Shown piece after piece: positions 14,877 to 57,468 of a DNA stretch of 64,000 nucleotides. The notes beneath the pieces are model-generated. The model was not told the origin of the DNA. It ran no database searches and saw only the letters and a program-made list of their open reading frames with translations. The DNA comes from a virus, in IMG/VR virus record IMGVR_UViG_3300021197_001931, positions 1 to 64,000 of that record, one strand, 5' to 3'. The translations under genes and the position numbers were made by a program. Position 1 is the stretch's first letter; every line of letters starts with the position of its first letter.

Positions 14877-14878
14877 AA

Positions 14879-15853: not shown

Positions 15854-15862
15854 GGAAATTAA

Positions 15863-17522: not shown

Positions 17523-17535
17523 GGGTAGTAAAATT

Positions 17536-18315: not shown

Positions 18316-18319
18316 CACA

Positions 18320-22038: not shown

Positions 22039-22042
22039 TATA

Positions 22043-23028: not shown

Positions 23029-23036
23029 GGAAGTAA

Positions 23037-24667: not shown

Positions 24668-24680
24668 AAGGCAGGGCCCC

Positions 24681-25283: not shown

Positions 25284-25285
25284 TT

Positions 25286-28710: not shown

Positions 28711-28722
28711 TATAAAAAAGGA

Positions 28723-32257: not shown

Positions 32258-33125
32258 ATGTTTGGTTACGGGACACCGTGGATACATAGGCTCCAAAGTA
32301 TATGCAGCCTTGCAGGACAGAGGCCACGAAGTAATGGGCATAGACTTGCAGGATGGGCATGATATATTAATCCGCCTAAAACCAGATACTGATGGAAAAT
32401 TTCATCCGCACTGGGCGTCGTTTAAACCAGAATATATATTTCATTTTGCAGCTATTCCAAGAGTTGTATACAGCATCGAGCAACCAGTCCATGTAATAGA
32501 GAACAACCTATTAAGCAGCCTCTATATTCTAGAGTTTGCAAGACATGTTGGAGCCAAACGAGTTATTTATTCTAGCTCTTCATCCGTAAGAGGGAATGGA
32601 AACGGGCCTGAAAGCCCTTACGCTGCGTCAAAATATATGCCTGAAAGCATGTGCAATGTTTGGTCTTCTTTATACGGCATAGATACTGTGTGCCTTAGAT
32701 ACTTTAACGTATATTCGCCGTGTCAAAACGCATCAGGTCCGTATGCCACTGCAATAGCAAATTTTATGGAGTTTATACGCCAAGATAGGGATCCATACAT
32801 TACGGGAGACGGAGAGCAGACCCGAGATATGGCGCACCTTGAAGATGTTGTCTCTGCAAATATATTTTGTATGAATCACGAAGGACCATTTGGTGGATCT
32901 TTTTTTGATGTTGGTACGGGAGACAATATTTCACTAAACGATATTAAAAAAATTGTTCTAGAATATTTTCCGGATACTAATTTTAAATATGTTGAAGACC
33001 GCCCAGGCGACGTTATGCACACAAAGGCAAATATTCAACCCCTTCGTGATCTTGGATGGCGTCCAAGAAATCAGATAAACAGTGGAATAAGAAGCTGTTT
33101 TAAATCTTTAAAAGATAATTTATAA
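32250..33125 (+). CDS. NAD-dependent nucleotide-sugar epimerase/dehydratase
   Basis: VTGHRGYIG, SSSS, PYAASK, RYFNVY, GDGEQTRD. Confidence 0.9.
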   Translation: MSRCLVTGHRGYIGSKVYAALQDRGHEVMGIDLQDGHDILIRLKPDTDGKFHPHWASFKPEYIFHFAAIPRVVYSIEQPVHVIENNLLSSLYILEFARHVGAKRVIYSSSSSVRGNGNGPESPYAASKYMPESMCNVWSSLYGIDTVCLRYFNVYSPCQNASGPYATAIANFMEFIRQDRDPYITGDGEQTRDMAHLEDVVSANIFCMNHEGPFGGSFFDVGTGDNISLNDIKKIVLEYFPDTNFKYVEDRPGDVMHTKANIQPLRDLGWRPRNQINSGIRSCFKSLKDNL

Positions 33126-40400: not shown

Positions 40401-43400
40401 TCTCCAAATGTAAACTCTAGCGCCTTTGGCAGGTTGGCTGGTGGGCTTGTTGCCGATACATTTAAGATTTCAATTGAAATATTTGTGGAGACATTGGGGG
40501 ACTTATTGAGCTTTGATGAGCTGCTAGAACAGACTGGCGACTTGCCTGTTGTCGGTGCATTAATTAAATCAGTTCCAGAAATAGCAAAATGTGCTGTTGA
40601 TATAAAGTTAATATCTAATGGGCAAGAACTTAACGTAGGATCAATACAAAATAATCTACAAAATGGTTTTAAAGGAGACATATGTGATATTATAGGAGGA
40701 TTAAAATCTTTGACATTGCCAGATATTGAGGCAAAGCTTAATTCTTCTTTGAATACCAGGACGCTAAAGGCGGCTTTTCTAAATGCTCTTTTGCCTGTTA
40801 TTAGAAATTTATTAATAAAGATTTTATTAAATACTTTGTTGAAAATCATAAGTAAAACAACTGGAGTTTTAAAGGGCGCTCTATGTGAGGCTGCAAAAAG
40901 CAATATCTCATCGGCTATCGAGGGATCCATAGCTGGAAATGTAGCAACACAGGTGTACATTCCCCCAGGGAATATAGGCAACTTGTTTGCTGAGGCCTTC
41001 TGCGGACCCTCTACCACCCCAGAGCAGGCAGCTGACCAGGCCTTCTCAACCATCTCTTCTTTGGTTGAGGGCGGCACTCCTGATTCTTCTTGCTCTTTGA
41101 TAGATTCATTATCTAGACGCCTTAGAATGGATCAATTGCTAGACCTACTACAAGGAGACGCTAGTGAAAGCGTAGTTCAGGTTGTATTAAGTATATCAAG
41201 GAATGATTGCCCTGAATTTTCAGATTTCTTATTTGATGAAGCATCAGTAAGATCATTTTTTGTAAACCTCTCAACTTCGTTTACTGATGAATTCCTAAAC
41301 GAAACTAGAGATAGTTTGGAAACTTTTGGGGCAAACCGAGGAGATATAGTTACGACTTGTGATATTGATCCTGATATATCTGGACTAGAGCAGGCGCTTC
41401 GAGAAGAGTGTGGAGATAACATATCAGAGGAACAGATACAGCAACAGATAGAATCATTTAGAAGGAGGGTGGAACAAACAGTAGATGATTTGACCTCCAT
41501 AATGTCAAGTGGCTTTGATAGTTCCATGGAAGACACAATTCAAAATACCTTAGCAAGTGTAGTACCTAAAGACGACCCTACAAATGTAATTTTGGTAAAA
41601 CAGGTTGTTGATAGTATGTTTGACCCTCTATATTCATCTTACTCAAGAGGATTACTGGCGCCGGTAGCTCCAAATGGGAATTGTGGGTATCTAAACGCAG
41701 TCTTATCTAATAAGAAGGCAGTGCCACTAAAAGGCCAGTTTACCGCATTTCGAGCACTTTCATCTCTAGCCTTTGGACCAATGTCTGCCATGTTACCAGG
41801 CGGGGGAGGTGCAGCAGAGGAGATTATTAGCAGTTTAAGGATGGATTTTTTTGGACCGGACACTGGAGAAAGGCCCACTGAAAAACCAGGGACAATTGGC
41901 TCTCAGCTATTAGATGTTTTTAATAATGGAGAATATTTTTCATTTTCTTCTGATTTTTCAAACGATTATATCGAATTAACTTATGATGGCCCAATAGAAT
42001 TACCAATATTTAATTTAAATTATAATTTTATTACAAATGAAGCGTCTTTAACAAGATATAGTGCTCTTGGGATTGAGAGAAACCAGGACAGCACGACCCT
42101 GGGACCGGGGTCTATGAGACTTGTGGCCCCAGAATCAGATGAAACTTTTGGGGAAGTGCAGGAATATCTAAATAATAATTCATCCGGAATATCCCCAATC
42201 GAGCTTGCTAGGCCATTTTTTCCATCTTTAGCAAGTTCGCCGACTCCACTTACAATAGGTTCATCGGTTATACTACATAACTTGTCTTCAACTGGCGTTG
42301 TTGATCCTCTTTCGCCTGGTTTGTATGGTACGAATTTTTCAAGTATAGCAGTGAATGTAGCTTCTTTTATAAAAACACTTAGAGCCAGAGTGCTCCTATC
42401 TTTAGCAAAATCAATAACGTATAATTCTAATGCGTTTGCATATGGAGAATACATATTTGATGAAGTATCGGATACACAACTTATTCCATCCGTTGACCCA
42501 GCCCTCACTGAAAGGGGTTATGATGTATTTTATCTAGATGATGGAAATATAGTAGTGGTGCCACCAAGGAAAGGAGGGTGGCTTGAATTAAAAGACATTC
42601 TTTTGCCCGAGAGGCAAAGTGAATATTGCTGTCCTGACAGGAGAGACTTGCTAGATGTTCAATCAATTAAGAGCGCGGCTTTAAGCTCTTTTGAATCTTT
42701 GTCTGAGGATCCAAGATTAAACGAAAACCCACGAACAGTAAGGGAGGCTCCGTATGCACATATTTTAGGCAGGACCACTGCTGCTTGTATGGAGGGTGTC
42801 GTTGTAGCAACCATAAGAACACATATAATCGAATGCATGTTGAATGGCTATGCAAGTTTCAGTAAGTATAAGACAAATATCCCATCTGCTTATTCTGATT
42901 TACTAGCAGATTATGTTAGCAAAAAAATGAGGGGCGGCCTTAGAACGCAGCGCCCCACCCCGCAGTTCCCAGCATCTCAGGGCACCGACCTTTATGGATA
43001 CTGGAATGAATTTCTTGAACAAGCTGTTCAGGTGTATATAAATCGTGCGAATTCTGGACGAATAACAATAACAGCGGCGGCAGACGCCGCACTTAGATCG
43101 ATAAGTAGCTTTTCTGCGCAATATAGATACCCCCAAAGAGGAGACCTCAGAGAAGCCCGAACATCTAGGCCTGGGATTACTCTTAAAAAATTGAGAAGAG
43201 ATGAGAATATAAAGGCAATTCAACAAACTGAAGACGAGGCAATTGTTATTTTAAGACATTTAGTAAAGGAAGAATTTAATAGAATATCTCAAACAATAGA
43301 TGAAATCTTCCCAACTCCTGGGGGCGGTTGGGTCTCCAACATTGGTATAGATTTTCTTAAAAATGGCTATTACATAGAAAATAGAAATGTTTTTGATATT

Positions 43401-44738
43401 CCAATGTTTGACGAAGATATCTTAGATGGCCTTCGAAACCCTGATTTGTCATTTGAGGAGAAGGGGCACTTTATTCTGCAGTCTTATGTGAGGCCGGTAT
43501 TGGTTGGAGATCCCACAGGGTTATCTGGCCCAGAAAGAGACTTCTATGAGAGAATGCAATCTCGAACTTCAACAGCCTCTCTTTTTGGTCTTCGTGAGAT
43601 GAGGGAATATATCCAAGAAGATGCATCTGCCTCTCTACTGTCGGCATACCCACAGATAAACTCTATATTTTCGTCTTTTAAATATGGACTTAGGCTTGTT
43701 TATGTTTTAGGAGATCAGGAAGTATCTGATTTTGAGTCTTCGGGGGGAGGTTTAGTCAGGCTCCTTGATCAATCGGATCCAATCACAAGGCTGTTCAGAC
43801 ACCCATCCGATGGGTCAGATAATAGATACTCCATTCCAATGGTTTCTTCTGAATTTATTGAAATTGAATTTGAGGGAGAAAGTTTTAACGATTTTGTTAG
43901 CGCTGCCTCAATCACTTCTTTGCAACTGCAGTCTATAGATAGGGCTGAGGAGTTTAATTGGCCTCTATTGGTAGAGTTAATGTTGAACACCTCACAATAT
44001 AAATCAATTTTTGAATATGCCGTCCCAGTTAACACAATGCAATCTTTAAACACAATTTATAATATAGAATCCTTTTTATATTCCATAGGTCGCGATGATG
44101 GGTGGGCTGCCAATACTTTAGTTTTGCCCGAATTACCTCTTGGGCCTCCCGTTGCGATACCTTTAGCAAACTTTAATAATTGGAACAAGAAAGCCTTTCC
44201 ACAAATGAAGCGAAAACTGAAGAGGATGTTCAATTTGCTTTATAGGTCAAATGATTTTACTTATGATCCCTTCGCAAACATTAATAGCCAACAAGATGAA
44301 ATTAGCGAGGAATCCAGAAACGCAAATGCAGATTCTTGGACTGATGGCCTGACACCGGAAACAAGGTCTAGAATTATATTTGAGAATCCACTTTGTTTTA
44401 GCCCCTCAGACAGAGAGGGGGATACTTCGTCTAGCGATAGTGGGGACACCTCCAGCGACGACGGAGGCTCGCCATCTGGCCCAAGAAGGAGAGATACTAC
44501 GGGAGACCACCTTGGCGGGAGGGGAGAGAGAGCCGTAGACGCGCGAACATATGTTTGTGTTACATACTACAATACTAGGTTAGAAGGTACATACTATCAA
44601 ATAATGACACTATCAGAAGCAGAAGCTCTCGCTGCCGAGGATAGGGATACTATAGTTGGTGTAAGTTGGGTCGATGCTCCTGGTGCTACTGGTCCTGCGG
44701 GCCCCTCTCGAACTAATTTGTGTGAGGACATATCATAG
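37476..44738 (+). CDS. Very large (2420 aa) virion/baseplate-region protein, function unknown
   Basis: Uninterrupted ORF between the spike and gp25; acidic, many Cys. Confidence 0.75.
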   Translation: MTVEVGSYIKRVRWLQEIIEPLFASTYIRRFFEDLGTGDPLQSNRADGYVNGEVIVYGDGGRDPYDPYFQNEDLEFINPEDGPTFRVYSEWRIRFLSEWSDSELISWLANTMSPRIFQALTYLTNVYGPLDKYDEMLGNNWGTATMAAMRDYSSGVNTNFFDNLGIRHTTLGPAAPDIDVQIINASKVVRTLLIFDDGYGCVSREERQNPELYSYPDKMPVKFSTTYFTSRFKALGYPPHGEPAGVFSYSTRVGIENHPDRRDGACPFPINPAYFTAWTENAFPQEEEVEVTEYSSIGTEHGSYDYTTYRYPGVREIACPILPDPTFLGAGEAGIPPTLQARHPCPETDLTEEFIREPVCTPDSSFLEPEWTAEMRSFLNSRVCEYYVPVQTPYGCPGGDGLAEYAREFSEQAVQSLLDFLNKEATEQQTNILVNFVLEELYYDFDKAPNVDLKLLYRWPFALVKALKLDDRNSPSINESPNAGSDVEFSSSSLLSDLDTLKLILEIIGPQQVDLWSSEKAKIIITGTAREADILQESRNILTLKTAITDFLNSNNYVFPPAVVEQAAGSQFPIPDSGVAADSLKIVYDEQYNFVSIFVRGDGSDYLQLNERLLPEDSALRNQTMVSYLANLNDIILDYNNSQELQLLPFLQKYHQPAVRISYQSGISEPTLLPDNCSGGVLEDVTNSILDSLVDSANEFVGKFASNLCMTSEQVAQKERDYLSSLESLKDIVSEQNLKNVFLQDPLIANIDRLIKSINNSEDVVKAAWANLFDKMTACGLFNLVTKTIETIAKVDFCGLSPEAILTVAIKSSLKNIDTGVLRRIYEGLPENTKNELLDNYSERFRQFIEDSGYNGSTAFPWDLEEQNRQAERDSRENRIIYDGSLFTSPSLEQTQSRYVNSYRAGYRAGLEYDPLSEDEEEIDLSSGQFDEGSFWAGYVAARGDVELGIPGDPNSIVPPRRSDVLTDAERLETNSPNVNSSAFGRLAGGLVADTFKISIEIFVETLGDLLSFDELLEQTGDLPVVGALIKSVPEIAKCAVDIKLISNGQELNVGSIQNNLQNGFKGDICDIIGGLKSLTLPDIEAKLNSSLNTRTLKAAFLNALLPVIRNLLIKILLNTLLKIISKTTGVLKGALCEAAKSNISSAIEGSIAGNVATQVYIPPGNIGNLFAEAFCGPSTTPEQAADQAFSTISSLVEGGTPDSSCSLIDSLSRRLRMDQLLDLLQGDASESVVQVVLSISRNDCPEFSDFLFDEASVRSFFVNLSTSFTDEFLNETRDSLETFGANRGDIVTTCDIDPDISGLEQALREECGDNISEEQIQQQIESFRRRVEQTVDDLTSIMSSGFDSSMEDTIQNTLASVVPKDDPTNVILVKQVVDSMFDPLYSSYSRGLLAPVAPNGNCGYLNAVLSNKKAVPLKGQFTAFRALSSLAFGPMSAMLPGGGGAAEEIISSLRMDFFGPDTGERPTEKPGTIGSQLLDVFNNGEYFSFSSDFSNDYIELTYDGPIELPIFNLNYNFITNEASLTRYSALGIERNQDSTTLGPGSMRLVAPESDETFGEVQEYLNNNSSGISPIELARPFFPSLASSPTPLTIGSSVILHNLSSTGVVDPLSPGLYGTNFSSIAVNVASFIKTLRARVLLSLAKSITYNSNAFAYGEYIFDEVSDTQLIPSVDPALTERGYDVFYLDDGNIVVVPPRKGGWLELKDILLPERQSEYCCPDRRDLLDVQSIKSAALSSFESLSEDPRLNENPRTVREAPYAHILGRTTAACMEGVVVATIRTHIIECMLNGYASFSKYKTNIPSAYSDLLADYVSKKMRGGLRTQRPTPQFPASQGTDLYGYWNEFLEQAVQVYINRANSGRITITAAADAALRSISSFSAQYRYPQRGDLREARTSRPGITLKKLRRDENIKAIQQTEDEAIVILRHLVKEEFNRISQTIDEIFPTPGGGWVSNIGIDFLKNGYYIENRNVFDIPMFDEDILDGLRNPDLSFEEKGHFILQSYVRPVLVGDPTGLSGPERDFYERMQSRTSTASLFGLREMREYIQEDASASLLSAYPQINSIFSSFKYGLRLVYVLGDQEVSDFESSGGGLVRLLDQSDPITRLFRHPSDGSDNRYSIPMVSSEFIEIEFEGESFNDFVSAASITSLQLQSIDRAEEFNWPLLVELMLNTSQYKSIFEYAVPVNTMQSLNTIYNIESFLYSIGRDDGWAANTLVLPELPLGPPVAIPLANFNNWNKKAFPQMKRKLKRMFNLLYRSNDFTYDPFANINSQQDEISEESRNANADSWTDGLTPETRSRIIFENPLCFSPSDREGDTSSSDSGDTSSDDGGSPSGPRRRDTTGDHLGGRGERAVDARTYVCVTYYNTRLEGTYYQIMTLSEAEALAAEDRDTIVGVSWVDAPGATGPAGPSRTNLCEDIS

Positions 44739-45199: not shown

Positions 45200-45221
45200 T
45201 ATTAATAACCGAGGGCTTTTG

Positions 45222-47018
45222 ATGACAAAAAATAAGGTGCCGATTAAATACACCAGCCGAGACTTTGAATCGATTAGAAGAGATTTGATCGATTACGCAA
45301 AGAGATATTATTCTGAAACGTTTAGAGACTTTAGTGATGCTTCGTTTGGGTCTCTAATGATAGATAGCGTTGCCTACATAGGCGATATCTTGTCTTTTTA
45401 CTTAGATTACCAGGTTAACGAAACGTTTCTAAACTCTGCCATCGAATACAACAACGTTATCAACATAGGCGAGCAAATGGGGTATAAATTTAAAGGCCCT
45501 GCATCCTCATACGGGGTGTGTGCGTTCTATGTAAAGATCCCCTCAAACACATCAGGAATTGGACCAGATACTTCCTATGTTCCAATATTAAAGAAGGGTG
45601 CCACTGTTTCCTCTACTGGAGGGGCGACCTTCATACTACTTGAGGATGTTGATTTTAATAACCCAACAAATGAAATTGTCAGCCTAGAACAAAATACAAC
45701 GACTAATCAAACAACTTTTTGGGGTATCCAGGCGTTTGGAAGTGTTGTCTCTGGAGAGTTGGGAACAGAAACTATAAATGTGGGCTCTTTTGAAAGATTT
45801 AAGAAGCTAGATTTAAAAGCTCTTGATATAGTTGAAATAATATCTGTAACAGATTCGGAAGGTAATGTTTACTACGAAGTCCCATTCTTGTCGCAAAACG
45901 TAATACACAGAGGTATTCCAAATCGTAATCAGGCAGATAATACTGCGCCCGCATCTATTATCAAGCCTTTTGTTGTTCCTAGGAGATTTGTTATAAAAAG
46001 AACATCTAGGAGGACTTCTCTCCAGTTTGGATATGGCTCTGAAGACGAGACCAACGAAGCATCTGTTGCAGAACCAACAAACGTTGTATTGCAAAAGATA
46101 GGAAAGAACTACATTAATGATACATCTTTTGATCCATCCAAGCTTTTAGATTCAGATAAATTTGGAGTTTCTCCGTCTAATACAACTTTAAGAATTAACT
46201 TTAGAAGAAATACAATCACAAATGCAAATGCATCAGCAGGATCAGTGACAAACATTGTTAGTTCAAGGGTGATCTTTCAAAATCCCACCTCTTTAAACAC
46301 AAACTCTAGATCCTCTGTTGCAAACTCTTTAGCAGTGACCAATTTAAAGCCAATATCTGGCGAATCATCAAACCCTGGATTAGATGAGCTTAGGCAACAA
46401 ATAATGGATAATTTTTCCGCTCAAGATAGAATAGTTACCGAGCAAGATTACAAAGCCTTTATATACACAATGCCAGGAAGGTTCGGGTCAATAACAAGAT
46501 GTGCTATCTATAGAGACACTGATGCGTTTAGAAGAAATTTGAATTTGTATGTCATTTCTTCTGATAAGGATGATTATCTTGTAGAGACAAATTCACAAGT
46601 AAAAGAAAATTTAAAAACTTGGATAGGCCAAAGTAAGATGATCAATGATACTATTGACATTTTGGATGCAAAGGTAGTTAATGTCCAATTAAGGTACACC
46701 CTCCTATCCTATAGCATTAGAGATTCACTAGAGCTTATTGTCAAAGCAAATAGCGCCCTCAAAAAAAGATTTTCTAGAAAATTTGACATAGGGGAAAACT
46801 TCGATTTAGATGAGGTAAGGAAAATTCTCACAAAACTACCAGGAGTTGATGGTGTAAGGAATGTTAGGCTGGTAAATAAGTTTGGTGGTGCGTATTCAAA
46901 CATTTCTTACAACACGGCTGAATATACTGATGCAGAAAACAGATTTGTTGAAGTGCCAAAGAATGTAGTATTGGAAATTAAATACTTAGATACCGATATA
47001 ATAGGAACGTTGAAATAA
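45222..47018 (+). CDS. Baseplate wedge protein, T4 gp6 / baseplate J-like
   Basis: YTSRDFESIR, DFSDASFG, AYIGDILSFYLDYQVNETF, AQDRIVTEQDY. Confidence 0.9.
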   Translation: MTKNKVPIKYTSRDFESIRRDLIDYAKRYYSETFRDFSDASFGSLMIDSVAYIGDILSFYLDYQVNETFLNSAIEYNNVINIGEQMGYKFKGPASSYGVCAFYVKIPSNTSGIGPDTSYVPILKKGATVSSTGGATFILLEDVDFNNPTNEIVSLEQNTTTNQTTFWGIQAFGSVVSGELGTETINVGSFERFKKLDLKALDIVEIISVTDSEGNVYYEVPFLSQNVIHRGIPNRNQADNTAPASIIKPFVVPRRFVIKRTSRRTSLQFGYGSEDETNEASVAEPTNVVLQKIGKNYINDTSFDPSKLLDSDKFGVSPSNTTLRINFRRNTITNANASAGSVTNIVSSRVIFQNPTSLNTNSRSSVANSLAVTNLKPISGESSNPGLDELRQQIMDNFSAQDRIVTEQDYKAFIYTMPGRFGSITRCAIYRDTDAFRRNLNLYVISSDKDDYLVETNSQVKENLKTWIGQSKMINDTIDILDAKVVNVQLRYTLLSYSIRDSLELIVKANSALKKRFSRKFDIGENFDLDEVRKILTKLPGVDGVRNVRLVNKFGGAYSNISYNTAEYTDAENRFVEVPKNVVLEIKYLDTDIIGTLK

Positions 47019-48667
47019 TGGCTATCAAAAGATATGTCGCTGCTAGCGACACAACTATTACAAATGCTTTTAAATCCAACTTGAGAACAAGAGGCACTGG
47101 TTCAAACATGGGTCGTGCCGATAGTCTTGAGGTGTTTTCCATTTATGGACAGGAGAGTTCTGGGTCTTCCGAATTATCTAGAGTTTTAGTGCATTTTGAC
47201 ACTGACGCCATATCAACAGATAGAACAAACGGGACAATACCTGTATCTGGCAGTGTTAGCTTTCATTTAAAAATGACAAATGCCGTGACCCCTTTTACCG
47301 TTCCTCGTAATTTTACGCTTGTTGCTGCCGCTGTTTCTGGGGCTAGTACCAGCATTCATGCCTCTATCGATTTTAATTGGCAAGAGGGTCACGGTATAGA
47401 TATGGACGGGTATACCGATATAACTCGTAATGGCGAAGGGTCCAACTGGATAAATATGGGCTCTAGCAGCACTTTAGGAGTTGTAAAGTGGGGAAATCAG
47501 GCCTCACCCACGGTGGGGGGCATTTATATTGATAATGCTAAATCTACATTTAAGCAATCTTTTGATACTGGTGTAGAAAACCTTGAAATTGATATCACTA
47601 CTTTAGTAGAACAGTGGGTAAACAGTGATGGAAACGTCTTAGGGACTATACCGAACTATGGACTTGGATTGCGATTATCAGCCTCGCAAGAAGCATATAT
47701 TGCAACGGCAGATGCAGCAACAAATGTTCCCGCCAATGATGGCGGTTCAAAAAGATCATATTACACAAAAAAATTCTTTGCAAGAAGTTCTGAGTTCTTT
47801 TACAGGCGCCCTATTATAGAGGCAAGATGGGACTCCGCAACGAAAGATGATAGAGGAAACTTTTATTATAGCAGTTCTTTGGCAACCGCTGATGAAAATT
47901 TAAATACTCTTTACTTGTATAACTATTTTAGAGGCCAGCTTAGAAATATACCAGAAATACAGGGAGGTAAAATATATGTCTCTATATTCTCTGGTTCGAT
48001 GTCAGACGAAGGCTCCGGTAGAGAGGCTCTGCATCTAGTTGCTGATGGAACCCATGTGTTGGCTGCCTCGCCTACTGTTGTTACGGGAGGTCATGTTTCT
48101 ACCGGCATATACTCTGCATCTTTTGCAATAACTGGGTCAAAACCTAAAGCACTAGAGACTTTGTATGATGTCTGGTTCAAGGGCGGAGTTGGCGAAATAA
48201 ACAATGCTTTGGATGCAACGGTGCAGTATCAAACTGGCACAATAGAGCCAAAAAGACTAATGCTGCATCCAGAGAATCCGTCCACCGCTTTTGTTTCAAA
48301 AATAACAAACTTAAGGCCATCATATTCAAATCTAGAGACCGCTAGATTTAGAGTTTTCACGAGACAAAAGAATTGGTATCCATCTATTTATACTAAGGCA
48401 GTTGCCACTGTGCCGCCATTTATAATAGAAAGTGGCTCATATTCAGTTACAAGAGTTGTTGACAATTATAGAGCTATTAGTTTTGGAACAGGTAGTGCTT
48501 TACATACTCAGATGTCCTTTGATGTTTCGGGCAGTTATTTTGACTTGGATATGAGTATGTTGGAGCCAGGCTATGCTTACAAGATCAAGCTTGCTTTCTA
48601 CAATGGTTCTATCGGCGGCTGGCAAGAACAAACGCAAGAATTTAAATTCAGAGTTGAAGAAGGTTAG
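47018..48667 (+). CDS. Virion structural protein (baseplate-associated), rich in [S/T]GS
   Basis: Beta-rich, coupled to gp6; YTKKFFAR...PIIEARW. Confidence 0.7.
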   Translation: MAIKRYVAASDTTITNAFKSNLRTRGTGSNMGRADSLEVFSIYGQESSGSSELSRVLVHFDTDAISTDRTNGTIPVSGSVSFHLKMTNAVTPFTVPRNFTLVAAAVSGASTSIHASIDFNWQEGHGIDMDGYTDITRNGEGSNWINMGSSSTLGVVKWGNQASPTVGGIYIDNAKSTFKQSFDTGVENLEIDITTLVEQWVNSDGNVLGTIPNYGLGLRLSASQEAYIATADAATNVPANDGGSKRSYYTKKFFARSSEFFYRRPIIEARWDSATKDDRGNFYYSSSLATADENLNTLYLYNYFRGQLRNIPEIQGGKIYVSIFSGSMSDEGSGREALHLVADGTHVLAASPTVVTGGHVSTGIYSASFAITGSKPKALETLYDVWFKGGVGEINNALDATVQYQTGTIEPKRLMLHPENPSTAFVSKITNLRPSYSNLETARFRVFTRQKNWYPSIYTKAVATVPPFIIESGSYSVTRVVDNYRAISFGTGSALHTQMSFDVSGSYFDLDMSMLEPGYAYKIKLAFYNGSIGGWQEQTQEFKFRVEEG

Positions 48668-48669
48668 AG

Positions 48670-51600
48670 ATGAGCAGTAGTGATCAATTTAATTCAGGAC
48701 CTAAAACAATCTCAGCAAAAAGCATGGCAGATCTTGGGACTGATGCTGAATCTGCAGAAAATATCATAGCAAAAAAGAATAGGTTAAAAGTCTTTTTACC
48801 TCCAATTGATTATTCCACTGCTTCAAACTTTGCTGTTTATGGATCGGCTGAAAAATATTACACGGACGCAGTAAAAAGAGTTTATTTAGAGTATCCGTAT
48901 GATGGGTCCGAGAAGGAAATAAATGAATATATTTTAAGTTCCTCATTTCTTGATCAATACATTTTTAATAAAAGATATCCGAGAACAAATGGGTTCGCTA
49001 GATTTGCTACAAAAAACTCATGGGGGTCTCTTGTTGACTCATCCGGGGACTACGGAGCACCAGCTACAAGCTCATATGAATATATAACATTTTATGGTGG
49101 ACCAAACACATCTTACAACACCAATGAATCAATCGCCAGCGCGTTCTCTTCATCTCATAATCAAAACAATATTTTTGATTTATCAAAAAAGAGAGGGTCA
49201 AACCTTGCTTTAAATCCGACTAGTGGCTCTACAGTTGAGTTCTGGTTAAATAAGTCTGCGTTTTTGCCGGCATTGACTAAAAAAGAGGTCATCTTAGATA
49301 TATGGAATGGAAATGGTGTTCGCGCCGATTCTAGCTATGGCCGCTTTATGATAGAAATTAGTGCTAGTGGTCACGCTTCTCAAGACGCTACTGGTCGCGG
49401 CGGTCTAAATCCTTTTCGTTTAACATATCTGTCTGGCACAACTGGTATAAGTAATCAAGTAATTGGTTCTACTTCCTTGACCACATCTTCGATAGCAGAT
49501 AACACATGGGCGCATTACGCTATTACTGTTGTTTCATCTTCTGATGAAGGGTTGAACGCCAAATTGTATATAAATGGCGAATTAGATGATTCTAGGGATT
49601 ATGCAGCAATTGGGACCATGAATGAAGTAACTGGCGCATTTAGAGCCAATATCGGTTCTCTTATGTATGAGCCACCAATTGGAACTGATGCACCAAACAT
49701 AGGTTGGGGCAAACTTTCCGCCGATTTAGATGAATTCAGATATTGGAAGATAGAGCGGTCTGCCAAAGACATAGGGAGGAACTGGTTTACACAAGTGCGC
49801 GGAGGCACTAACACAGACGACGCGAACGTTGATCTTGGAGTATATTTTAAATTCAATGAGGGTGTTACTGGAGAAGACTCAGCAGATTCAACCGTTTTAG
49901 ATTATTCCGGTAGGATATCAAATGGTTCGTGGACTGGGTATGATAGCCAATCAAGAAATAGTGGGTCTGCAATTGTCCTATCTAGAGCAGCTTCGTCTGA
50001 ATTCAAGGATCCAATCATATATTCCAGCCATCCGGACGTGGAGTCTATTTTATCTGAATTGAAACTAGAGGGTAGGGTATATGATCAGGAAAACAACTCT
50101 TCAATAATAAACTCTATGCCAGCATGGATCGTTGAGAGTGACACAAATGGTGATTTACAAAATTTGGTGCAAATTGTAGCAAGCTATTTTGATAGGCTGC
50201 AGAACCAAATTAGAGAATTGCCAAGAATAAAAAATATAAGTTATTTAAGCTCTAGCTACGCCTCCCCCGCGTTTGCTTCAGAGTTGGTTAACAGCACGGG
50301 AATGTTTGCGTCTGAGATGTTTATTGATTCTAACATAATAGAAGAAATAATGTCTCGTGATGAAGATAGGAATTTTGATTTAGATTTTGATGAGATAAGA
50401 AATAGAATCTATCAAAACATTTATAATAACCTTATTTACATAAACAAGACAAAAGGGACAGAAAAGGCATTTAGGAATCTTATTCATTGTTATGGGGTAG
50501 ATGAAAGCCTCATAAGAATGAACATGTATGGGGACGAAGTAACATATGAACTAAAAGACAATTTTAGATCATCTGTTGTAGCGAAGAATTTAGTAGATTT
50601 CACCGGGCCAGGAAAAAACCAGGGAACCATTTTCCAAATGAGTGCCTCAAATAATAGTGATAGCGTCTCATTTATAACTGGTTCGGGAGCTACTGGTAAA
50701 GAAGACTTCATTGGCTTTACTTTGGAAAGTGAGATTCTTTTCCCTACGACCCCTGGTATCTGTGAGACAACAGCTAGCATAGGAAACCCAATAGTAACAT
50801 CGTCGTTGTTTGGAATGCATGGGGCAAATGGATATACTCCCGCTGACACTACTTGGCCCGAAAATGATTATGCTGATATTAGAGTTGTAGCCATTAGGCC
50901 TGGTGGGGATTTTAATGAAGATGACGCATATTTTATGGTTACCTCATCATTTGCGGGTCTCCCTACTTTAACAACCGACACTTACAAAGATGTCTACAAC
51001 AATAATAAATGGAATTTTGCTATAAGGATTATAAATGACAAGTATCCTTTAGGCGACGTTGTTACAGGGGTCTCAGGAAGTGATACAGGATATAAGTTGG
51101 AGTTTTATGGGGTCAACCAAACACTTGATGTCACAGAAGACGAATTTTATATAACTGGAGATATTAGCACACAAGATGCCGTAAATGTTTTAAGAAGCGA
51201 CAAGAGGGTTTTTGCTGGCGCCCACAGGACTAATTTTACAGGCTCAATACTCCAGTTTAGTGACGTAAAACTATCCAGTGTTAGGTACTGGGCCAATCAA
51301 ATCTCAAATGATGTTATAAAGGCACATGCTAGAGATACAAGTAATTACGGAACATTTTTCCCACATAGGAATGCGTTTTTAAACCAGTCGACAGCTATTG
51401 GGACATATATACCAGAAATAGAAACGTTAGCCCTTAATTGGAGCTTTGATAACCTGACAGGCTCAAGCCCCACTGGTAGACTAGAGGTGCTTGATAGTTC
51501 TTCTGGTTCACTAGAATTACAAGATAGGTATGGTTGGCTTGGAAAAGTAGTGAAAGCCCAACATACTGCAGTTGGGTTTGGTTTCCCATTTGATGATAAA

Positions 51601-54600
51601 AAAGTCATAAATAGAGAGTTTATCCATACAGCAAAACAATCATTACCAGAAAATGTGCAGTCATCAGAGATGGTTAACATATTGTCTCGTGATGATGAGG
51701 TTTTCACGAGAGACCAGAGGCCAGTAAATTATTATTTCTCTATTGAAAAAAGTATGTATCAGGTAATTTCTGACGAAATATTAAATACGTTTGCAACAAT
51801 AGTTGAATTCAACAACCTAATAGGAGACCCTGTTAACAGATACCGTCAAGATTATAAAATACTTGAAAAAGCTAGGAGTCTTTATTTTGAAGATGTGGAA
51901 AATGTTCCAAGTTTAGATAAATTCATTGATTTTTACAAATGGATTGATTCTTCTTTATCAAATTTCTTGTACCAGCTAATTCCCGCATCTGCTAAGTCGT
52001 CAAACCAAATTAGAACATTGATTGAAAGCCATATATTAGAGAGAAATAAATATTGGACTAAATTTCCAACGCTAGAGAAAAAGGTCCCTGGAGGGCCGTC
52101 TGGGCTAGTAACTGCAGCAGCATCATTGGGGGGAGGAACTAGCGATAGCCCATATCGTTCTCGCGATGGAGCGAATGCTGTACTCGACAGCGCCCCAATA
52201 CCATATGTTGAAACTAAACATGCGTCATATTGGAAAAAGAGAGCATCAAGAACTGAATCGCCGCTAGCGACTGGAATTACAGGCGTTGATAATGATAAGC
52301 AAACAATCTTAAATGCTTTACAGTCTGGGTACGATCGAGATATTAGTAGACCTTTTGTATTAAATAAAAAAGTTGATAAAACTTTTCATGGTGGTACAAA
52401 CTATCCGAAGATAAAAAAGAAAGATATTATTTTTAACGCAACATCCCCAGATGGGCCCCAAGCGACGTCTGGAGTTCCCCTAAATGTAATGCTTGTTAAC
52501 GATACTGAAGTTCAAAATTTTGAAAACATAGACGACATTTTAGATCCAAATAAGAAGAAATTTTATTCCTTCACCTGTAGAATACGCAGGGAAGACGAGA
52601 CTGGCCTACAATATGTAAACAATAACACATATACCTCGGTTCTAAAGGGAGACATAGCAGCCCCATTTAGATTAGTTAGTGGATCAATTACAACAGGATA
52701 TAACAAGTTAATAGCTGAAAACTTTAAAACTGGAACGATACTAACAAATTTGCACGAGGATACGTTTGTAACTAATGAGAGATCTTTACAGGGACCGTTT
52801 ACAGATGCACATGTTGGTGGCCATCAATCTAGGCACATAGACATAAACCGCTTCGATCCGCTGAAAGCTACAATAGACAAAATTGATAATCAGGAAACTC
52901 GACCGGAGGCATGGAGAATCCTAATAGGCACCGAATATGGGACTGATACGACTATGTTGGGTATAACAGGCCCAGACTACCCATATCCTGTGGGCCCGTA
53001 TCCGTATACTTTATTTAAAAAGGCGTCAAGATACAGAAACGTTGGTGCAAAAAGACCAGTAAACATTAGAAACATAAATTATACGACTGCGTCAAATGTA
53101 GTGGGCAATTACTCAAATAATTATGAAATATTTCAAACTGCTGGTAGAAGCATTAACAATAAATATTTTGTGGCCAATGAGGGTATCTCTTTGCCGACCT
53201 CCCCGCTTGATCTAAAAGCTGCACTTCCGCAAACAAACACTTTGTCCACCTTGCTTGGGTTAAAATTTGGATACACATCTTTGGGTAACTACTTTGGAGT
53301 CAAGCTGGCGTCCGATGGGGCTCTAGATGTCAGCAACAGGTATGAAATTTTAGGAAATTTTGATACGATTATGCGAACAGGGTCGGCTACAAAATCTATA
53401 TTTGTAAATAGGTTTTCCGCCCCAGGAGGCCCAGAAGTAAATACCGTAAGCTATTTAGATATCGCAGCGGCAGAAAAGTCAGCTTACAACGCTTTACCAT
53501 TTAGAAATCTATCCGTTCTTACCTCTGGTAGCGGTGAGGCAGCCGCAATACGAGCAGACAATTTAAATAGAAGAATTGGATTAAGAACTCTGCTGAAAGA
53601 GCATGCAGGTTCTTTCGGAACCGGGCTAAATGCAACAATCCCCACCGATGAATATGCATCAGTTCCTTCTTGGCACAAAGTAAATAGAAATCCTGTAAGG
53701 AGGATAGAGATCAATGGGGATAAGAGTCCATCAGACAATTCTTATGTGACCGGCACAATTTATGATAATGGGTTTATATCTCATGCAATACCGAGAGGTG
53801 ATCACCAGTATTCCTGGATATCTGCTTCAGCAGCTCCTTTTGAGAGAATCTATGGGCACGCTTATGGAGATAGCGTTATTTCAAGTTCTGTGGGAGGATT
53901 CCAGCAAGCCATATTGTTTTTGTCGCAAAGCCACAATACTGTTAGTGCTACGTCTGGTAAGCCAATAGTTGTAGATTTTGTTGGCTTAAACACTCTAATT
54001 GTTGAAAATATAGACGTAGAAAACAATATCGCAAGTGGAAGCTCTGGAAAAGGCCGATTGGGTGATTATATAAACATAGACTTTAAAGATGATAACTTGT
54101 CTACTACGTTTGCAGCTGGTGAGGTTTTAAACGCTTTATTGCTGCATAGGAATGGCCCATATGGAGTTAACACATGGACACAAATACGAGGGGGAGATAA
54201 AAAGCTAACCAGATTGTTGAGAAATAGAAACATAATTTCACACTTTAACAAAACAGAGTATGAGTACCCCTTAAAAACAGATAATATAAGGCCAAAGCAG
54301 CTAAGGGGAAAGCTGTTTAACTTTACCGAAGCTCCACTACAGAAAAAGTTTAATTCATTATCACATAATGTTTCTATAAAAACAACTACATCTGATGGTA
54401 GAGAAATAACCAAGAATGCTTCATTTGAAACAAGTTATGGAAACGCATTAAGCTACTTTAATAATGCTGAGTTGGATAATCTACTTGCTGATCAAACTGA
54501 GCAAATTAGTGTTCCCGCCTATGATAAAATAATAAATCTATACACTGGCGATCAAACTAATAACCCAGATAGTCCAATTGAAAAGTTTAACTCACTAACA

Positions 54601-57468
54601 TATAAAGAGAGAGTTTACCCATCTTCTATAAACGTTTTTTCCGCTAGTGTTAGAGTGAGGCAGGACTATAGCAATACTTTTTGGAGAAATGACAGAACCG
54701 GAAGAGCACGCTCAAATGTCTTCAGTTTTGGCAAAACTATATCAGACATTAGCATGTGGTCTCTAGACGCAGATACGGATTGGGCAACAAGGCAACCAAA
54801 TACTAGAGTTGGAACTAGCGGTGGCCCCGGTGTCTTGCAGAACAACTACTCACAGATACACAACGGCGATACAACTAAAATATTTGGATCGGTTCAGTAC
54901 GCAAGAAGGCACACGTTAGAAAATGTTCGATCTGTCGTTGGACCAGAGGGCTTGGATATACCCGCAACTGGAACCTATTATACGTCTCCCCTAGGATATA
55001 GGAGATCACACGATGAAGATAGGTTTGGAGGCCAAGCTCTATGGGAGGCCGCATCTCAAGCTGGAAAAACCCCATGGTATAATTCATATGATGACTATGT
55101 TCAAGAAATGAGACTAGCTGGTAAAGAATATTCAATTGTTCCAGAGTTTAGAATAAGCGACCACATAGAGTTGTACTACAAGGCAGATAATAGTAATTTC
55201 TTAGCTGATAGGCTTGATCTATTGAAAATAGAAGGAGGAGATAGCAACAAAAATAATAGTTCAAAACGCGATTTCTTTAAAACATATACAAACTCTGACT
55301 TTTTGAAATATTTTGGCGTTGTTCGCGATGACCTTAAAGATACTGGTTCTCCATCATCCATAAAACTCACATGCGGAGCTTTGTTAAAATTCCTTCCTTA
55401 TAATGGGTTTTATCCATCAGAACGAACGGTGGAAATTGCTTCAATGTTTTCTTCATCATATGGAAATTATCTAAACCTTGATCGAAAAGCTGGCATGGCA
55501 CCAGAAACGGCGTTTAGAACTTTTAACGCCCCAATGTTCGCTCCTGGTGTTATGTACAATACTATTAAGAGTGGAATAGCGGTAGACTACCCAGTGATGA
55601 CCTCTAGTTTCGATACACATGGTCTGGCATCGGCTGAGGATTCTTGTAGTTACATATCAGGAACGAACGGACTTGGGCTTTTTGGATATAGAGTTCCGTT
55701 TGAGTCCCTGGTGGAACCAGAGTCTTATTTATCTGATGTTGATCTTTTTGATATGGAAACACACCCAAGTGCAGCACTTAGTGTTACTGCTTCTTGGGCA
55801 GGTCAGGGCGGAAACTTGTATAAGATGATGGCCAGCAACTTCTTAGCAGAAAGTATAGATTTCTTCTTACCAGAGGGTAAATTAACAACTATAAGTTCAA
55901 AACCAGAGGATCAGTGGGAGTCTGCTGAAAAAGGAAGAGTGTATGCTGCGAGAGTTAAGATGCGCAAGACATATAATAAGTCTACGATAAGAACAGGATC
56001 GCAGGGATACTACAATCCACTAACTCCTGCGTCTCTATGGAGGCAGGCTGATTACCATGAGACATTCACTATGTACAGCCGTCCTAGCGCATTTGGGCCC
56101 CCCGTGGGTGGAGGAACACAAGGAACAGCTATTTACGGCTCTACCAACGGATTTAATCCTTGCTTTACTCCGCCTTACTATTATGGTGAATGTTGGGCTG
56201 ACATATTCTGGACAGCTGATAAAGCTGGAAATATTACTGCAGAGGATATCACAAATTCAAACAGTTTGGCGATCTCCTATATTAGAATTGGAAATGACTG
56301 GGCTCTGTCAAACGCCACAGGTAAGGGCACTGTGGGAGTGTCTTCAAGGAATACCTTACTTCATTCTGATAATATTGAGTCGAACTCAATGCAGTTAGAT
56401 GCGTCGTTAAATTTGCTAGCAAAAGCTGAGACTAAGAAAATAATTTATGACGCCAATACAGGGAAACCAACAATAGCGGAAGACGGTGGACAGGCAGTGT
56501 TAACTGTCCAAACAAAGTTTGAAACGCCTATGCTTAATTTTGCAGAAGTATCTGTCACCAATCCAACGCACGGAAGCGCCAGTATACCCAGGGGCATGTG
56601 GCACCAATACGCTCAGCCACCTTCATCGCCAGACATAGGGGTATTTTTGTCTATAAATGATGTACCAGATAACTATATTGAAAATGCATTAGGTGGCGTC
56701 CCCGCTTCCACTGGCTCATTAATCGATTTGCTTGGATTTAAGACAGAGGAACAAAGGCTTGGAGAGGTTTCGGAGACCAAAAAAATAAGTGAAGCTATCG
56801 TTGCGATACCATATATTGAAAAGGGTGGTGAAAGAAAGTTTTTTGAAATTTCTAGAAAAGTAGTAGACGAGGCGTTGCTAGACAACCCGACAGTTTCAAA
56901 TAGCGTAAAGCAGATGGTGGATTCTATGCAAAAATATATATTGCCACCAAAGCTTGACTTTGTAGAAAACCCTGATGCCGTCGACCCGTTTGCGATGTAC
57001 ATATTTGAATTTGAACATGTACTAGACCGGGATGATTTAGTTGATATTTGGCAAGGACTGCCACCAAAAATAGGACAGGCCTTTGATTCGGAGTCGACTC
57101 AGTTTACTTCTGGTAAAGGGCCACACACTTCTCAAATTATAAAAGAAGTTGAGATATCTCACCCATTGCTAGTTGGGGAATTATTAAATAAAGACAATAT
57201 ACCCAGCAAACTAAGATGGATGGTCTTTAAGATCAAGAAAAAAGCGCAAAAGAATTATTTTGACAAAGTCATAAAAGATCATGCAAGCAATGGGGGAAGA
57301 TTTGATAGTTCTAAATTAACCAATGTTGGTAGAATAAATTCTAGCAAAGGCTCTAGTCCAAAGTATACCTACAATTGGCCTTATGATTTCTTTTCTTTAG
57401 TAGAACTAGTTAAACTAGACGCAGAAATAGAGATATCAAACGACTTAGACAGCCAGGAAAAATCATAA
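48670..57468 (+). CDS. Giant (2932 aa) baseplate/tail protein with LamG (concanavalin A-like) domain(s) and a wedge-like segment
   Basis: TVEFWL...WAHYAIT...KLYINGEL...LDEFRYW (LamG); NNLIYINKTKGTEKAFRNLIHCYG (wedge gp7-like KGT motif). Confidence 0.78.
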   Translation: MSSSDQFNSGPKTISAKSMADLGTDAESAENIIAKKNRLKVFLPPIDYSTASNFAVYGSAEKYYTDAVKRVYLEYPYDGSEKEINEYILSSSFLDQYIFNKRYPRTNGFARFATKNSWGSLVDSSGDYGAPATSSYEYITFYGGPNTSYNTNESIASAFSSSHNQNNIFDLSKKRGSNLALNPTSGSTVEFWLNKSAFLPALTKKEVILDIWNGNGVRADSSYGRFMIEISASGHASQDATGRGGLNPFRLTYLSGTTGISNQVIGSTSLTTSSIADNTWAHYAITVVSSSDEGLNAKLYINGELDDSRDYAAIGTMNEVTGAFRANIGSLMYEPPIGTDAPNIGWGKLSADLDEFRYWKIERSAKDIGRNWFTQVRGGTNTDDANVDLGVYFKFNEGVTGEDSADSTVLDYSGRISNGSWTGYDSQSRNSGSAIVLSRAASSEFKDPIIYSSHPDVESILSELKLEGRVYDQENNSSIINSMPAWIVESDTNGDLQNLVQIVASYFDRLQNQIRELPRIKNISYLSSSYASPAFASELVNSTGMFASEMFIDSNIIEEIMSRDEDRNFDLDFDEIRNRIYQNIYNNLIYINKTKGTEKAFRNLIHCYGVDESLIRMNMYGDEVTYELKDNFRSSVVAKNLVDFTGPGKNQGTIFQMSASNNSDSVSFITGSGATGKEDFIGFTLESEILFPTTPGICETTASIGNPIVTSSLFGMHGANGYTPADTTWPENDYADIRVVAIRPGGDFNEDDAYFMVTSSFAGLPTLTTDTYKDVYNNNKWNFAIRIINDKYPLGDVVTGVSGSDTGYKLEFYGVNQTLDVTEDEFYITGDISTQDAVNVLRSDKRVFAGAHRTNFTGSILQFSDVKLSSVRYWANQISNDVIKAHARDTSNYGTFFPHRNAFLNQSTAIGTYIPEIETLALNWSFDNLTGSSPTGRLEVLDSSSGSLELQDRYGWLGKVVKAQHTAVGFGFPFDDKKVINREFIHTAKQSLPENVQSSEMVNILSRDDEVFTRDQRPVNYYFSIEKSMYQVISDEILNTFATIVEFNNLIGDPVNRYRQDYKILEKARSLYFEDVENVPSLDKFIDFYKWIDSSLSNFLYQLIPASAKSSNQIRTLIESHILERNKYWTKFPTLEKKVPGGPSGLVTAAASLGGGTSDSPYRSRDGANAVLDSAPIPYVETKHASYWKKRASRTESPLATGITGVDNDKQTILNALQSGYDRDISRPFVLNKKVDKTFHGGTNYPKIKKKDIIFNATSPDGPQATSGVPLNVMLVNDTEVQNFENIDDILDPNKKKFYSFTCRIRREDETGLQYVNNNTYTSVLKGDIAAPFRLVSGSITTGYNKLIAENFKTGTILTNLHEDTFVTNERSLQGPFTDAHVGGHQSRHIDINRFDPLKATIDKIDNQETRPEAWRILIGTEYGTDTTMLGITGPDYPYPVGPYPYTLFKKASRYRNVGAKRPVNIRNINYTTASNVVGNYSNNYEIFQTAGRSINNKYFVANEGISLPTSPLDLKAALPQTNTLSTLLGLKFGYTSLGNYFGVKLASDGALDVSNRYEILGNFDTIMRTGSATKSIFVNRFSAPGGPEVNTVSYLDIAAAEKSAYNALPFRNLSVLTSGSGEAAAIRADNLNRRIGLRTLLKEHAGSFGTGLNATIPTDEYASVPSWHKVNRNPVRRIEINGDKSPSDNSYVTGTIYDNGFISHAIPRGDHQYSWISASAAPFERIYGHAYGDSVISSSVGGFQQAILFLSQSHNTVSATSGKPIVVDFVGLNTLIVENIDVENNIASGSSGKGRLGDYINIDFKDDNLSTTFAAGEVLNALLLHRNGPYGVNTWTQIRGGDKKLTRLLRNRNIISHFNKTEYEYPLKTDNIRPKQLRGKLFNFTEAPLQKKFNSLSHNVSIKTTTSDGREITKNASFETSYGNALSYFNNAELDNLLADQTEQISVPAYDKIINLYTGDQTNNPDSPIEKFNSLTYKERVYPSSINVFSASVRVRQDYSNTFWRNDRTGRARSNVFSFGKTISDISMWSLDADTDWATRQPNTRVGTSGGPGVLQNNYSQIHNGDTTKIFGSVQYARRHTLENVRSVVGPEGLDIPATGTYYTSPLGYRRSHDEDRFGGQALWEAASQAGKTPWYNSYDDYVQEMRLAGKEYSIVPEFRISDHIELYYKADNSNFLADRLDLLKIEGGDSNKNNSSKRDFFKTYTNSDFLKYFGVVRDDLKDTGSPSSIKLTCGALLKFLPYNGFYPSERTVEIASMFSSSYGNYLNLDRKAGMAPETAFRTFNAPMFAPGVMYNTIKSGIAVDYPVMTSSFDTHGLASAEDSCSYISGTNGLGLFGYRVPFESLVEPESYLSDVDLFDMETHPSAALSVTASWAGQGGNLYKMMASNFLAESIDFFLPEGKLTTISSKPEDQWESAEKGRVYAARVKMRKTYNKSTIRTGSQGYYNPLTPASLWRQADYHETFTMYSRPSAFGPPVGGGTQGTAIYGSTNGFNPCFTPPYYYGECWADIFWTADKAGNITAEDITNSNSLAISYIRIGNDWALSNATGKGTVGVSSRNTLLHSDNIESNSMQLDASLNLLAKAETKKIIYDANTGKPTIAEDGGQAVLTVQTKFETPMLNFAEVSVTNPTHGSASIPRGMWHQYAQPPSSPDIGVFLSINDVPDNYIENALGGVPASTGSLIDLLGFKTEEQRLGEVSETKKISEAIVAIPYIEKGGERKFFEISRKVVDEALLDNPTVSNSVKQMVDSMQKYILPPKLDFVENPDAVDPFAMYIFEFEHVLDRDDLVDIWQGLPPKIGQAFDSESTQFTSGKGPHTSQIIKEVEISHPLLVGELLNKDNIPSKLRWMVFKIKKKAQKNYFDKVIKDHASNGGRFDSSKLTNVGRINSSKGSSPKYTYNWPYDFFSLVELVKLDAEIEISNDLDSQEKS

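Follow-up and report, generated by a model that had tools for sequence, protein, structure and literature searches.

A dispersed [ST]-G-S tripeptide enriched in outer virion proteins of a Far-T4 phage is a candidate O-glycosylation acceptor accompanied by a pair of family-4 glycosyltransferase genes

The stretch analysed here (the window) comprises positions 1 to 64,000 of the IMG/VR virus record IMGVR_UViG_3300021197_001931, and is the start of a single-contig phage record of 161,719 bp with a GC content of ~38% and all genes on the plus strand, estimated by CheckV to be ~72% complete. The capsid, portal, terminase and sheath proteins of this marine phage are distant T4-type proteins, the named phages closest to it in capsid protein are Flavobacterium phage immuto (NC_055915.1), Microcystis phage Mel-JY01 (PP395634.1) and Rhodothermus phage RM378, and it belongs to the Far-T4 group, which was described from viromes (PMC4360716). 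Two features of the window concern us: a short motif, [ST]-G-S, dispersed through two proteins of the baseplate region, and a glycan gene cluster headed by two family-4 glycosyltransferases (GT4a and GT4b), which may act on that motif.

In the baseplate region, a gp6-like baseplate wedge gene (45219–47018; PHROG 219 baseplate wedge subunit, E 2e-17) is followed directly by the gene of a 549-amino-acid (aa) protein (47018–48667) and then by that of a giant 2932-aa baseplate/fibre-region protein (48670–57468), an order whose synteny is anchored by the gp6-like gene. Neither of the two latter proteins matched a Pfam or PHROG family, and the 549-aa protein had no tblastn match in cultured phages. 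An initial annotation, made from the letters of the window, had reported that [ST]GS is over-represented in both. The 549-aa protein does contain the eight sites originally counted (47096–47104, 47159–47167, 47246–47254, 47990–47998, 48131–48139, 48431–48439, 48488–48496 and 48527–48535) against 1.10 expected, and the giant protein is likewise enriched, with 14 sites where about 13 had been counted (9 nt each, starting at 49222, 49960, 50677, 51073, 51238, 51457, 51502, 52678, 53377, 53524, 54034, 55342, 55993 and 56710) against 3.87 expected. Expected counts were taken from each protein's own residue composition and P values from 100,000 residue shuffles per protein, the comparison with shuffled sequences that had been suggested, and the excess survives it in both proteins (P ~1e-5 each). 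As a guard against post-hoc choice of the motif all 8000 tripeptides were scanned: SGS and TGS take the first two ranks in the two proteins combined, and TGS ranks first in the whole proteome of this phage.

The broader class [ST][GAS]S, which the annotation had also singled out, is in excess too (12 against ~3.3–3.4 in the 549-aa protein, 36 against 12.4 in the giant). The sites are single, dispersed and flanked by ordinary sequence, as first described, and the 71 genomic [ST]GS sites are written in more than 40 different 9-base codon strings; the signal therefore lies at the protein level, and a DNA-level repeat or methylation-type motif is ruled out. The remark that the motif usually follows a hydrophobic residue was overstated: this holds for 9 of the 22 sites in the two proteins, against a background of 31%, and for 52% of sites across all enriched proteins of the genome.

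A third large protein had been offered as a motif-free contrast. This 2420-aa protein (37476–44738) matched no PHROG family, lies between hub/lysozyme-like genes and the gp6-like wedge gene, has an acidic Ser/Asp-rich C-terminal tail and may be a tape-measure-like or internal protein. It is indeed free of [ST]GS, but 2.41 sites are expected and the shortfall is not significant alone (P=0.087); motif depletion was rejected on that ground. Its [ST][AS]S count is normal, and the broad class stands at 7 against 8.3. Giants at the same position in G001 and G004, two relatives of this phage, similarly carry no site (2576 aa, 0 against 1.57; 2047 aa, 0 against 1.11), their equivalence to the 2420-aa protein being one of position only, because BLAST shows no homology: no ortholog of the 2420-aa protein was found by BLAST in G001, G004, immuto, Mel-JY01, RM378, T4 or the cyanophage S-BM3. 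The gp6-like wedge protein also carries none (0.56 expected), and its orthologs in five relatives have 0–1 sites.

The motif is not limited to the two baseplate proteins in which it was first noticed. Eleven virion proteins of this genome are enriched, together holding 60 [ST]GS against 12.2 expected. Beyond the 549-aa and 2932-aa proteins, they are the products of 66393–67523 (5 against 0.6), 67545–68774 (5 against 0.62) and 84024–84497 (3 against 0.3), a PHROG 'baseplate protein' at 84512–86605 (10 against 1.94), two proteins with three sites each (86605–87456 and 87634–88500), the tail sheath (98925–101864; 5 against 1.34), the N-terminal extension of the capsid protein (two sites) and a head-tail adaptor-like protein (two sites). 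The motif thus marks a subset of outer virion proteins genome-wide, at four to eight times the chance level. The rest of the proteome has 13 sites against 25.7, and the 13 other proteins of at least 500 aa, including the terminase, portal, an SbcC-like protein and the 2420-, 1161- and 1134-aa proteins, have one against 10.3. We do not claim that non-virion proteins actively avoid the motif, because T4, without such a system, has a similar ratio (0.68).

In an all-against-all BLAST of the proteome, homology among the carriers was confined to the pairs 66393/67545 and 86605/87634 and to the C-terminal domain of 84512, a domain common to two motif-free proteins. Since the carriers are mostly unrelated, the motif was not inherited with one repeated domain, and a common repeated domain is ruled out as its cause. 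The protein at 84512–86605 shares its C-terminal 'baseplate protein' domain (PHROG 20556) with the protein at 89279–91489, which has no site against 1.85 expected. When five lineage genomes are scored over all their proteins, the preference is for S or T and no other residue at the first position, for G (weakly A and S) at the second and for S (weakly T) at the third. In the enriched proteins of this genome [ST]GN is depleted (2 against 8.0 expected) and the permuted motif S[ST]G is not enriched (10 against 12.2).

Sites are held in two regimes: fixed in the 549-aa family, and shifting at a kept density in the giant protein and the sheath. The 549-aa family numbers more than 4000 metagenomic proteins, and the best 120 of these (53–100% identity) carry 5–11 sites each against ~1.0 expected, 1000 against 132 in total. 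All 80 IMG/VR orthologs have at least four sites, with no motif-poor lineage found among them. Query positions 27, 77, 325, 472, 491 and 504 hold the motif in 78–119 of the 120 sequences, S472, S474, T491 and S493 never vary across an alignment of 59 sequences, and six further columns hold the motif in 29–65 sequences where the query reads SGA, TGG or TGT. In the giant protein, by contrast, 52 of the 61 motif columns in an alignment of three genomes are private to one genome. The orthologs from G001 (3221 aa, 23 against 4.87) and G004 (4246 aa, 35 against 7.0), about 50%-related genomes with ~40% identity between the giant proteins, are themselves strongly enriched, so that all three aligned giants keep a 3.6- to 5-fold excess, and SGS, SAS, SSS, TGT and TAS swap at well-aligned positions. 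Sheath sites likewise differ between orthologs.

On the particle, the sheath sites occur only in the variable N-terminal domains, 32 of 32 in six lineage members preceding the conserved C-terminal core; the corresponding N-terminal domains of T4 gp18 make up its outer surface. An AlphaFold2 model of the 549-aa protein is all-beta, with a mean predicted local distance difference test score (pLDDT) of 65.8, and its Foldseek matches are only tandem Ig/FN3-like sandwiches, which are generic. In this model the motifs occupy strand ends, a hairpin or conserved low-confidence loops, and they stand before strands, after strands and in hairpins with no single recurring geometry.

The glycan cluster spans 10739–33125. 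Its first gene encodes GT4a, a soluble family-4 glycosyltransferase of the GT-B type (10739–12007; PF00534, 45.1 bits against a gathering cut-off of 26.4), and overlaps that of GT4b (11983–13281; PF00534, 31.8 bits), a divergent paralog; the proteins are 422 and 432 aa long and 22.6% identical over 186 residues. The E-x7-E motif of both reads EGFGL...FE in this genome, G001, G004 and immuto, GT4b of Mel-JY01 has EGYGRPIAE, still E-x7-E, and GT4b of RM378 a degenerate E-x7-N. The best solved sequence relative of GT4a is B736L of chlorovirus NY-2A (3oy2, E 2e-9), which is also the best fold match (E 8e-16) of a GT4b AlphaFold2 model (pLDDT 89, predicted template-modelling score 0.87) with a GT-B fold. 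All 500 of the matches counted in the GT4b fold search reached E <=0.001, those listed being GT-B enzymes, mostly GT4; the ten best include SdgB and GtfA, which transfer O-GlcNAc to protein Ser, at a template-modelling (TM) score of ~0.48, a similarity that is generic for GT4. Residues 211–213 of GT4a (11369–11377) happen to read SGS, right after a conserved RRK phosphate-binding stretch (RRKMSGS), and are not conserved, being SGT in G004 and PGD in immuto.

The remainder of this soluble cluster (13278–33125, assigned by Pfam) is variable, and the glycan genes after the GT4 genes differ in immuto, Mel-JY01 and LR756508, an uncultured phage of 484 kb. Here the cluster as a whole holds three GT4, four GT2 and one GT9 transferase (the last at 28.6 bits against a cut-off of 22, with heptose-type genes at 18320–21638), sugar-nucleotide enzymes (NeuB, a CMP-sugar synthetase, two epimerases, a UDP-glucose dehydrogenase, an RpiB-cytidylyltransferase fusion, a PfkB kinase, a transaldolase and a class II aldolase), a deacetylase-like protein, a TagF-like protein and methyltransferases. 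The Pfam scan of the cluster found no flippase, polymerase or oligosaccharyltransferase. The fusion of an RpiB-type sugar isomerase with a cytidylyltransferase-like domain (19162–20040) lies beside the GT9, kinase, aldolase and transaldolase genes in what looks like an unusual higher-carbon sugar pathway, and a DUF4910/DUF2172 protein with a winged-helix HTH_47 domain (28723–30027; E 1e-101) is also encoded inside the cluster.

Across genomes the motif follows the GT4 pair. Whole-proteome [ST]GS counts, observed/expected, are 73/37.8 in this phage, 78/33.3 in G001, 133/50.0 in G004 and 117/47.6 in immuto, all with GT4a and GT4b, 52/19.3 in RM378, with GT4a and a divergent GT4b, and 140/56.4 in Mel-JY01, partly in low-complexity repeats, with both enzymes but GT4a in two reading frames. 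SGS and TGS fall within the top seven tripeptides in G001, G004, immuto and RM378, and rank 4 and 20, respectively, in Mel-JY01. Three genomes with neither GT4 differ: T4 has 19/27.9, Xoo-sp13 77/67.2 (1.15-fold) and S-BM3 91/54.3 (1.7-fold), SGT being equally enriched in the last. A general property of T4-like virions is thus ruled out by T4 (0.7-fold) and Xoo-sp13, S-BM3 showing a mild and unspecific background.

Orthologs of GT4a were found in G001–G005, immuto, Mel-JY01, RM378 and LR756508, the GT4 pair is kept in all five long IMG/VR relatives first examined and in G001 and G004, and GT4b is present in nine of nine near-complete motif-rich genomes as well as in immuto and Mel-JY01, contigs at most 70% complete being uninformative for its absence. 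It is absent from LR756508, LR756511, Xoo-sp13, T4 and S-BM3. The order PD-(D/E)XK nuclease, GT4a, GT4b is the same in immuto and Mel-JY01, followed by different glycan genes, and in RM378 GT4a is followed by a very divergent GT4b (hidden Markov model (HMM) E 2e-9). The initial annotation had proposed asking whether the motif co-varies with the first GT4 genes, and both of these (10739 and 11983) are present in every near-complete relative examined; the relatives without transferases to which it had looked for the opposite result give no excess in T4 and, in LR756508 without GT4b, no clear excess in the homologs. LR756511 proved unusable as a clean negative, for although GT4a and GT4b are missing, other GT1-family genes sit close to its capsid gene, and weak GT4 matches in Tetrasphaera phage TJE1, Synechococcus phage S-CBS4 and Streptomyces phages were too distant to be orthologs. 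In Mel-JY01 the GT4a ortholog is annotated as two open-reading frames of 190 and 302 aa (83441–84932), the result of a frameshift, of a sequencing error or of a split gene, and the virion proteins are still motif-rich. In immuto, whose host is Flavobacterium sp. LMO8 and whose sheath gene lies at 147026–149155, a 1053-aa tail spike carries 26 sites and a 373-aa protein 12. The structural regions of immuto also over-represent GSF, HAE, SHA and YSH strongly (HAE 10 against 0.98), which suggests a repeated fibre motif.

The GT4b-less LR756508 is the most telling relative. In trees of TerL, portal, capsid and sheath proteins it groups with immuto and Mel-JY01 (support 85/87, 92/97, 99/98 and 99, respectively), sister to this phage with G001 and G004, and from this nested position it follows by parsimony that the ancestor had both GT4b and the motif. 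Besides the nuclease and GT4a (HMM E 3.5e-85), LR756508 has kept a CMP-sugar synthetase and a GT29-like gene, and BLAST, a GT4b profile and a six-frame search found no GT4b. Its two sheath paralogs, full-length homologs of the sheath protein of our phage (E 2e-85), have no site where 0.58 and 0.38 are expected. The counterpart of the 549-aa protein likewise has none and that of the giant has two; over the whole set of orthologous virion proteins the count is 6 against 2.96, where five relatives show a 4.2- to 6.0-fold excess, and SGS ranks 137 genome-wide. Among 80 loci around LR756508-like gp6 genes, 46 have at least 1200 aa downstream of gp6, and in all 46 that stretch holds a 2.6-fold excess or more; the contigs are mostly fragments, in which absence of GT4b is uninformative. 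Downstream of GT4a in this phage, the CMP-sugar synthetase adjoins the GT29 sialyltransferase-like gene (LR756508.1 308060–309877). Such GT29-like sialyltransferases are typical of eukaryotes.

The reading that we prefer, and to which we give even odds, is that [ST]-G-S, loosely [ST]-[GAS]-[ST], is an O-glycosylation acceptor on folded, outward-facing virion proteins. The common motif in unrelated proteins points to a trans-acting reader, for which GT4b is the best candidate. In the proposed mechanism modification would take place inside the infected cell, on folded outer virion proteins, where GT4b, alone or with GT4a, would read the motif where strands end or in loops within beta-rich domains and put the first sugar on its Ser or Thr; enzymes of the variable cluster would then lengthen the glycan, so that baseplate, fibres, sheath and capsid would come to bear a coat of sugar specific to the strain. 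That Far-T4 phages generally practise such sequon-directed O-glycosylation of their own particles, GT4a/GT4b reading [ST]-G-S and a fast-evolving cluster building the strain-specific coat, is a more tentative proposal, to which we give a little under an even chance.

Of the original interpretation, the acceptor proposal is favoured by the enrichment, the outer virion proteins that carry it and the co-occurrence with the GT4 genes; the idea that cluster plus sequon form a complete system is too simple, as LR756508 keeps GT4a and other glycan genes. Several observations weigh against glycosylation as the explanation. The link between GT4b and the motif rests on essentially one loss event, and the other positives, all of one clade, are therefore not independent. 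LR756508 retains a weak, non-significant excess (6 against 2.96) that is ~3-fold downstream of gp6 with tiny counts, and as this phage keeps GT4a and glycan genes without the motif, a glycan system can exist without the tag. RM378 is enriched in the motif, yet its GT4b is without the second Glu of EX7E and looks catalytically impaired from its sequence; GT4b might, speculatively, be a recognition partner for GT4a. S-BM3, without these GT4s, has its mild unspecific 1.7-fold excess, the sheath of Xoo-sp13 has 4 sites against 0.72, and large virion-region proteins of 1161, 1134 and 736 aa in this phage carry none. The fixed, partly invariant sites of the 549-aa family fit a structural role too, and with a 549-aa model of only moderate confidence the exposure of its sites is argued indirectly. 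To our knowledge no known O-glycosylation sequon reads [ST]-G-S, and our literature search found no paper with chemical or proteomic evidence on any member of the lineage.

The main rival, which we consider rather unlikely, is that the motif is purely structural and unmodified, a strand-end, tight-turn or beta-bulge element of beta-sandwich decoration domains in which a small inward-facing residue sits between two hydroxyls. The position-fixed sites of the 549-aa family, their placement at strand ends and loops of Ig/FN3-like sandwiches in its model, the hydrophobic residue that precedes 52% of sites across the enriched proteins, the lack of the motif in helical or enzymatic proteins and the mild excess in giant beta-rich proteins of S-BM3 are all as such an element would have it. 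A purely structural role is argued against, however, by homologous outer domains that do without the motif, in the sheath and baseplate proteins of LR756508, and by sites that move between orthologs while their density is kept; T4 also has beta-rich virion proteins with no excess, the carriers are mostly unrelated in sequence, and no single turn geometry recurs.

A second possibility, improbable in our estimation, is that the motif is the site of a reader other than a glycosyltransferase, acting by phosphorylation, glycerophosphorylation, acylation or the docking of a chaperone or decoration protein, and that the cluster serves the host envelope or DNA. LR756508, with GT4a and glycan genes but no motif, would fit this, the cluster does hold a TagF-like glycerophosphotransferase and several methyltransferases, and phage glycosyltransferase clusters are documented to hypermodify DNA (bioRxiv 10.1101/2023.12.21.572611, as cited in PMC12619734). 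GT4b tracks the motif, though, and no kinase or other candidate writer was found that does; the cluster is without export machinery for an envelope target, and DNA as its target was set aside, as the search of this ~72% complete genome turned up neither a Tet/JBP nor a ThyA-type hydroxymethylase and a DNA target is therefore without support here. An artefact of chance or of Ser/Gly/Thr-rich low complexity, which could be suspected as the motif was chosen after looking at the sequence and the enriched proteins are somewhat S/T/G-rich, is refuted by the composition-based expectations and shuffles, the tripeptide ranks, the permuted motif, the single dispersed sites and replication in the 549-aa orthologs, G001, G004, immuto, RM378 and Mel-JY01.

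O-glycosylation of virion proteins through [ST]-G-S would have partial precedents. In mycobacteriophages, phage-encoded glycosyltransferases glycosylate the virions (Freeman et al. 2023, as described in PMC12619734), the glycans being chemically demonstrated at the C-termini of capsid and tail-tube subunits (PMC12619734). By that description the likeness lies in soluble phage glycosyltransferases that would act in the cytoplasm on structural proteins of the phage itself and so give the particle a glycan coat; the differences are that here the candidate sites, predicted from sequence, are a tripeptide scattered over proteins of the baseplate, fibres, sheath and capsid extension, and that the glycan cluster of this T4-like myovirus, at 22 kb, is far larger.

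GtfA/GtfB are cytoplasmic GT4 Ser-O-glycosyltransferases of serine-rich repeat adhesins in Gram-positive bacteria (PMC6973325, PMC5207161), and by their PDB names SdgB (7vfn) acts on Ser-Asp peptides and GtfA (4pqg) is an O-GlcNAc transferase. GT4a and GT4b resemble these systems in belonging to GT4, in their GT-B fold, in being two adjacent paralogous genes and in a proposed cytoplasmic action on short Ser motifs with a small middle residue. Unlike GtfA/GtfB, they lack the DUF1975 beta-meander insertion (no Pfam match at E up to 0.001), they are shorter (422–432 aa, against 501 and 490 residues for the GtfA and SdgB chains), EX7E is intact in most GT4b members, as it would not be in a dead partner, and the proposed acceptors are motifs scattered singly through folded beta domains where those of GtfA/GtfB and SdgB are long low-complexity repeats. 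The autotransporter heptosyltransferase systems TibC/TibA and Aah/AIDA-I O-glycosylate a beta-rich surface protein in the cytoplasm at many loop serines, TibC being an iron-binding dodecamer that acts on a beta-helix passenger domain (PMC4358343). Similarly, the window holds a GT9-type heptosyltransferase-like gene and a heptose-type pathway, but the enzymes tracking the motif here are GT4, not GT9. The best-known capsid glycans of chloroviruses are N-linked at atypical sites. Chloroviruses encode their own capsid glycosylation machinery (PMC9614988, PMC7019647), and the phage shares with them virus-encoded soluble glycosylation genes, here proposed to serve its own structural proteins, and, in B736L, the closest solved relative of both GT4a and GT4b; unlike this phage, the virus encoding B736L infects eukaryotic algae, and the protein is a putative glycosyltransferase whose acceptor is not established.

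Phage virion glycosylation has so far been established only for mycobacteriophages, and if the proposal is right [ST]-G-S would be the first acceptor motif to be defined for glycosylation of the virions of any bacterial virus, and a sequence rule by which modified sites could be predicted. Far-T4 phages are a globally abundant marine and freshwater lineage with thousands of metagenome members, so sugar-coated virions would then be common in nature. It would also account for glycan clusters without export genes and have consequences for how hosts are recognised, how stable the particles are, how many are lost to grazing or adsorption and how phage surfaces might be engineered. The lineage has cultured members in immuto, RM378 and Mel-JY01. 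Were the structural alternative correct, the motif would still be a useful marker of outer decoration domains in the lineage.

Two further genes lie upstream of the glycan cluster in the window. A 257-aa protein (8903–9676) has a sub-threshold match to an anthrax lethal factor domain (PF07737, 20.5 bits against a cut-off of 27.4) over ~30 residues only, and a fusion of a PIN domain with a PhoH-like ATPase (PF13638 and PF02562) is encoded at 7392–8705, just upstream of the cluster.

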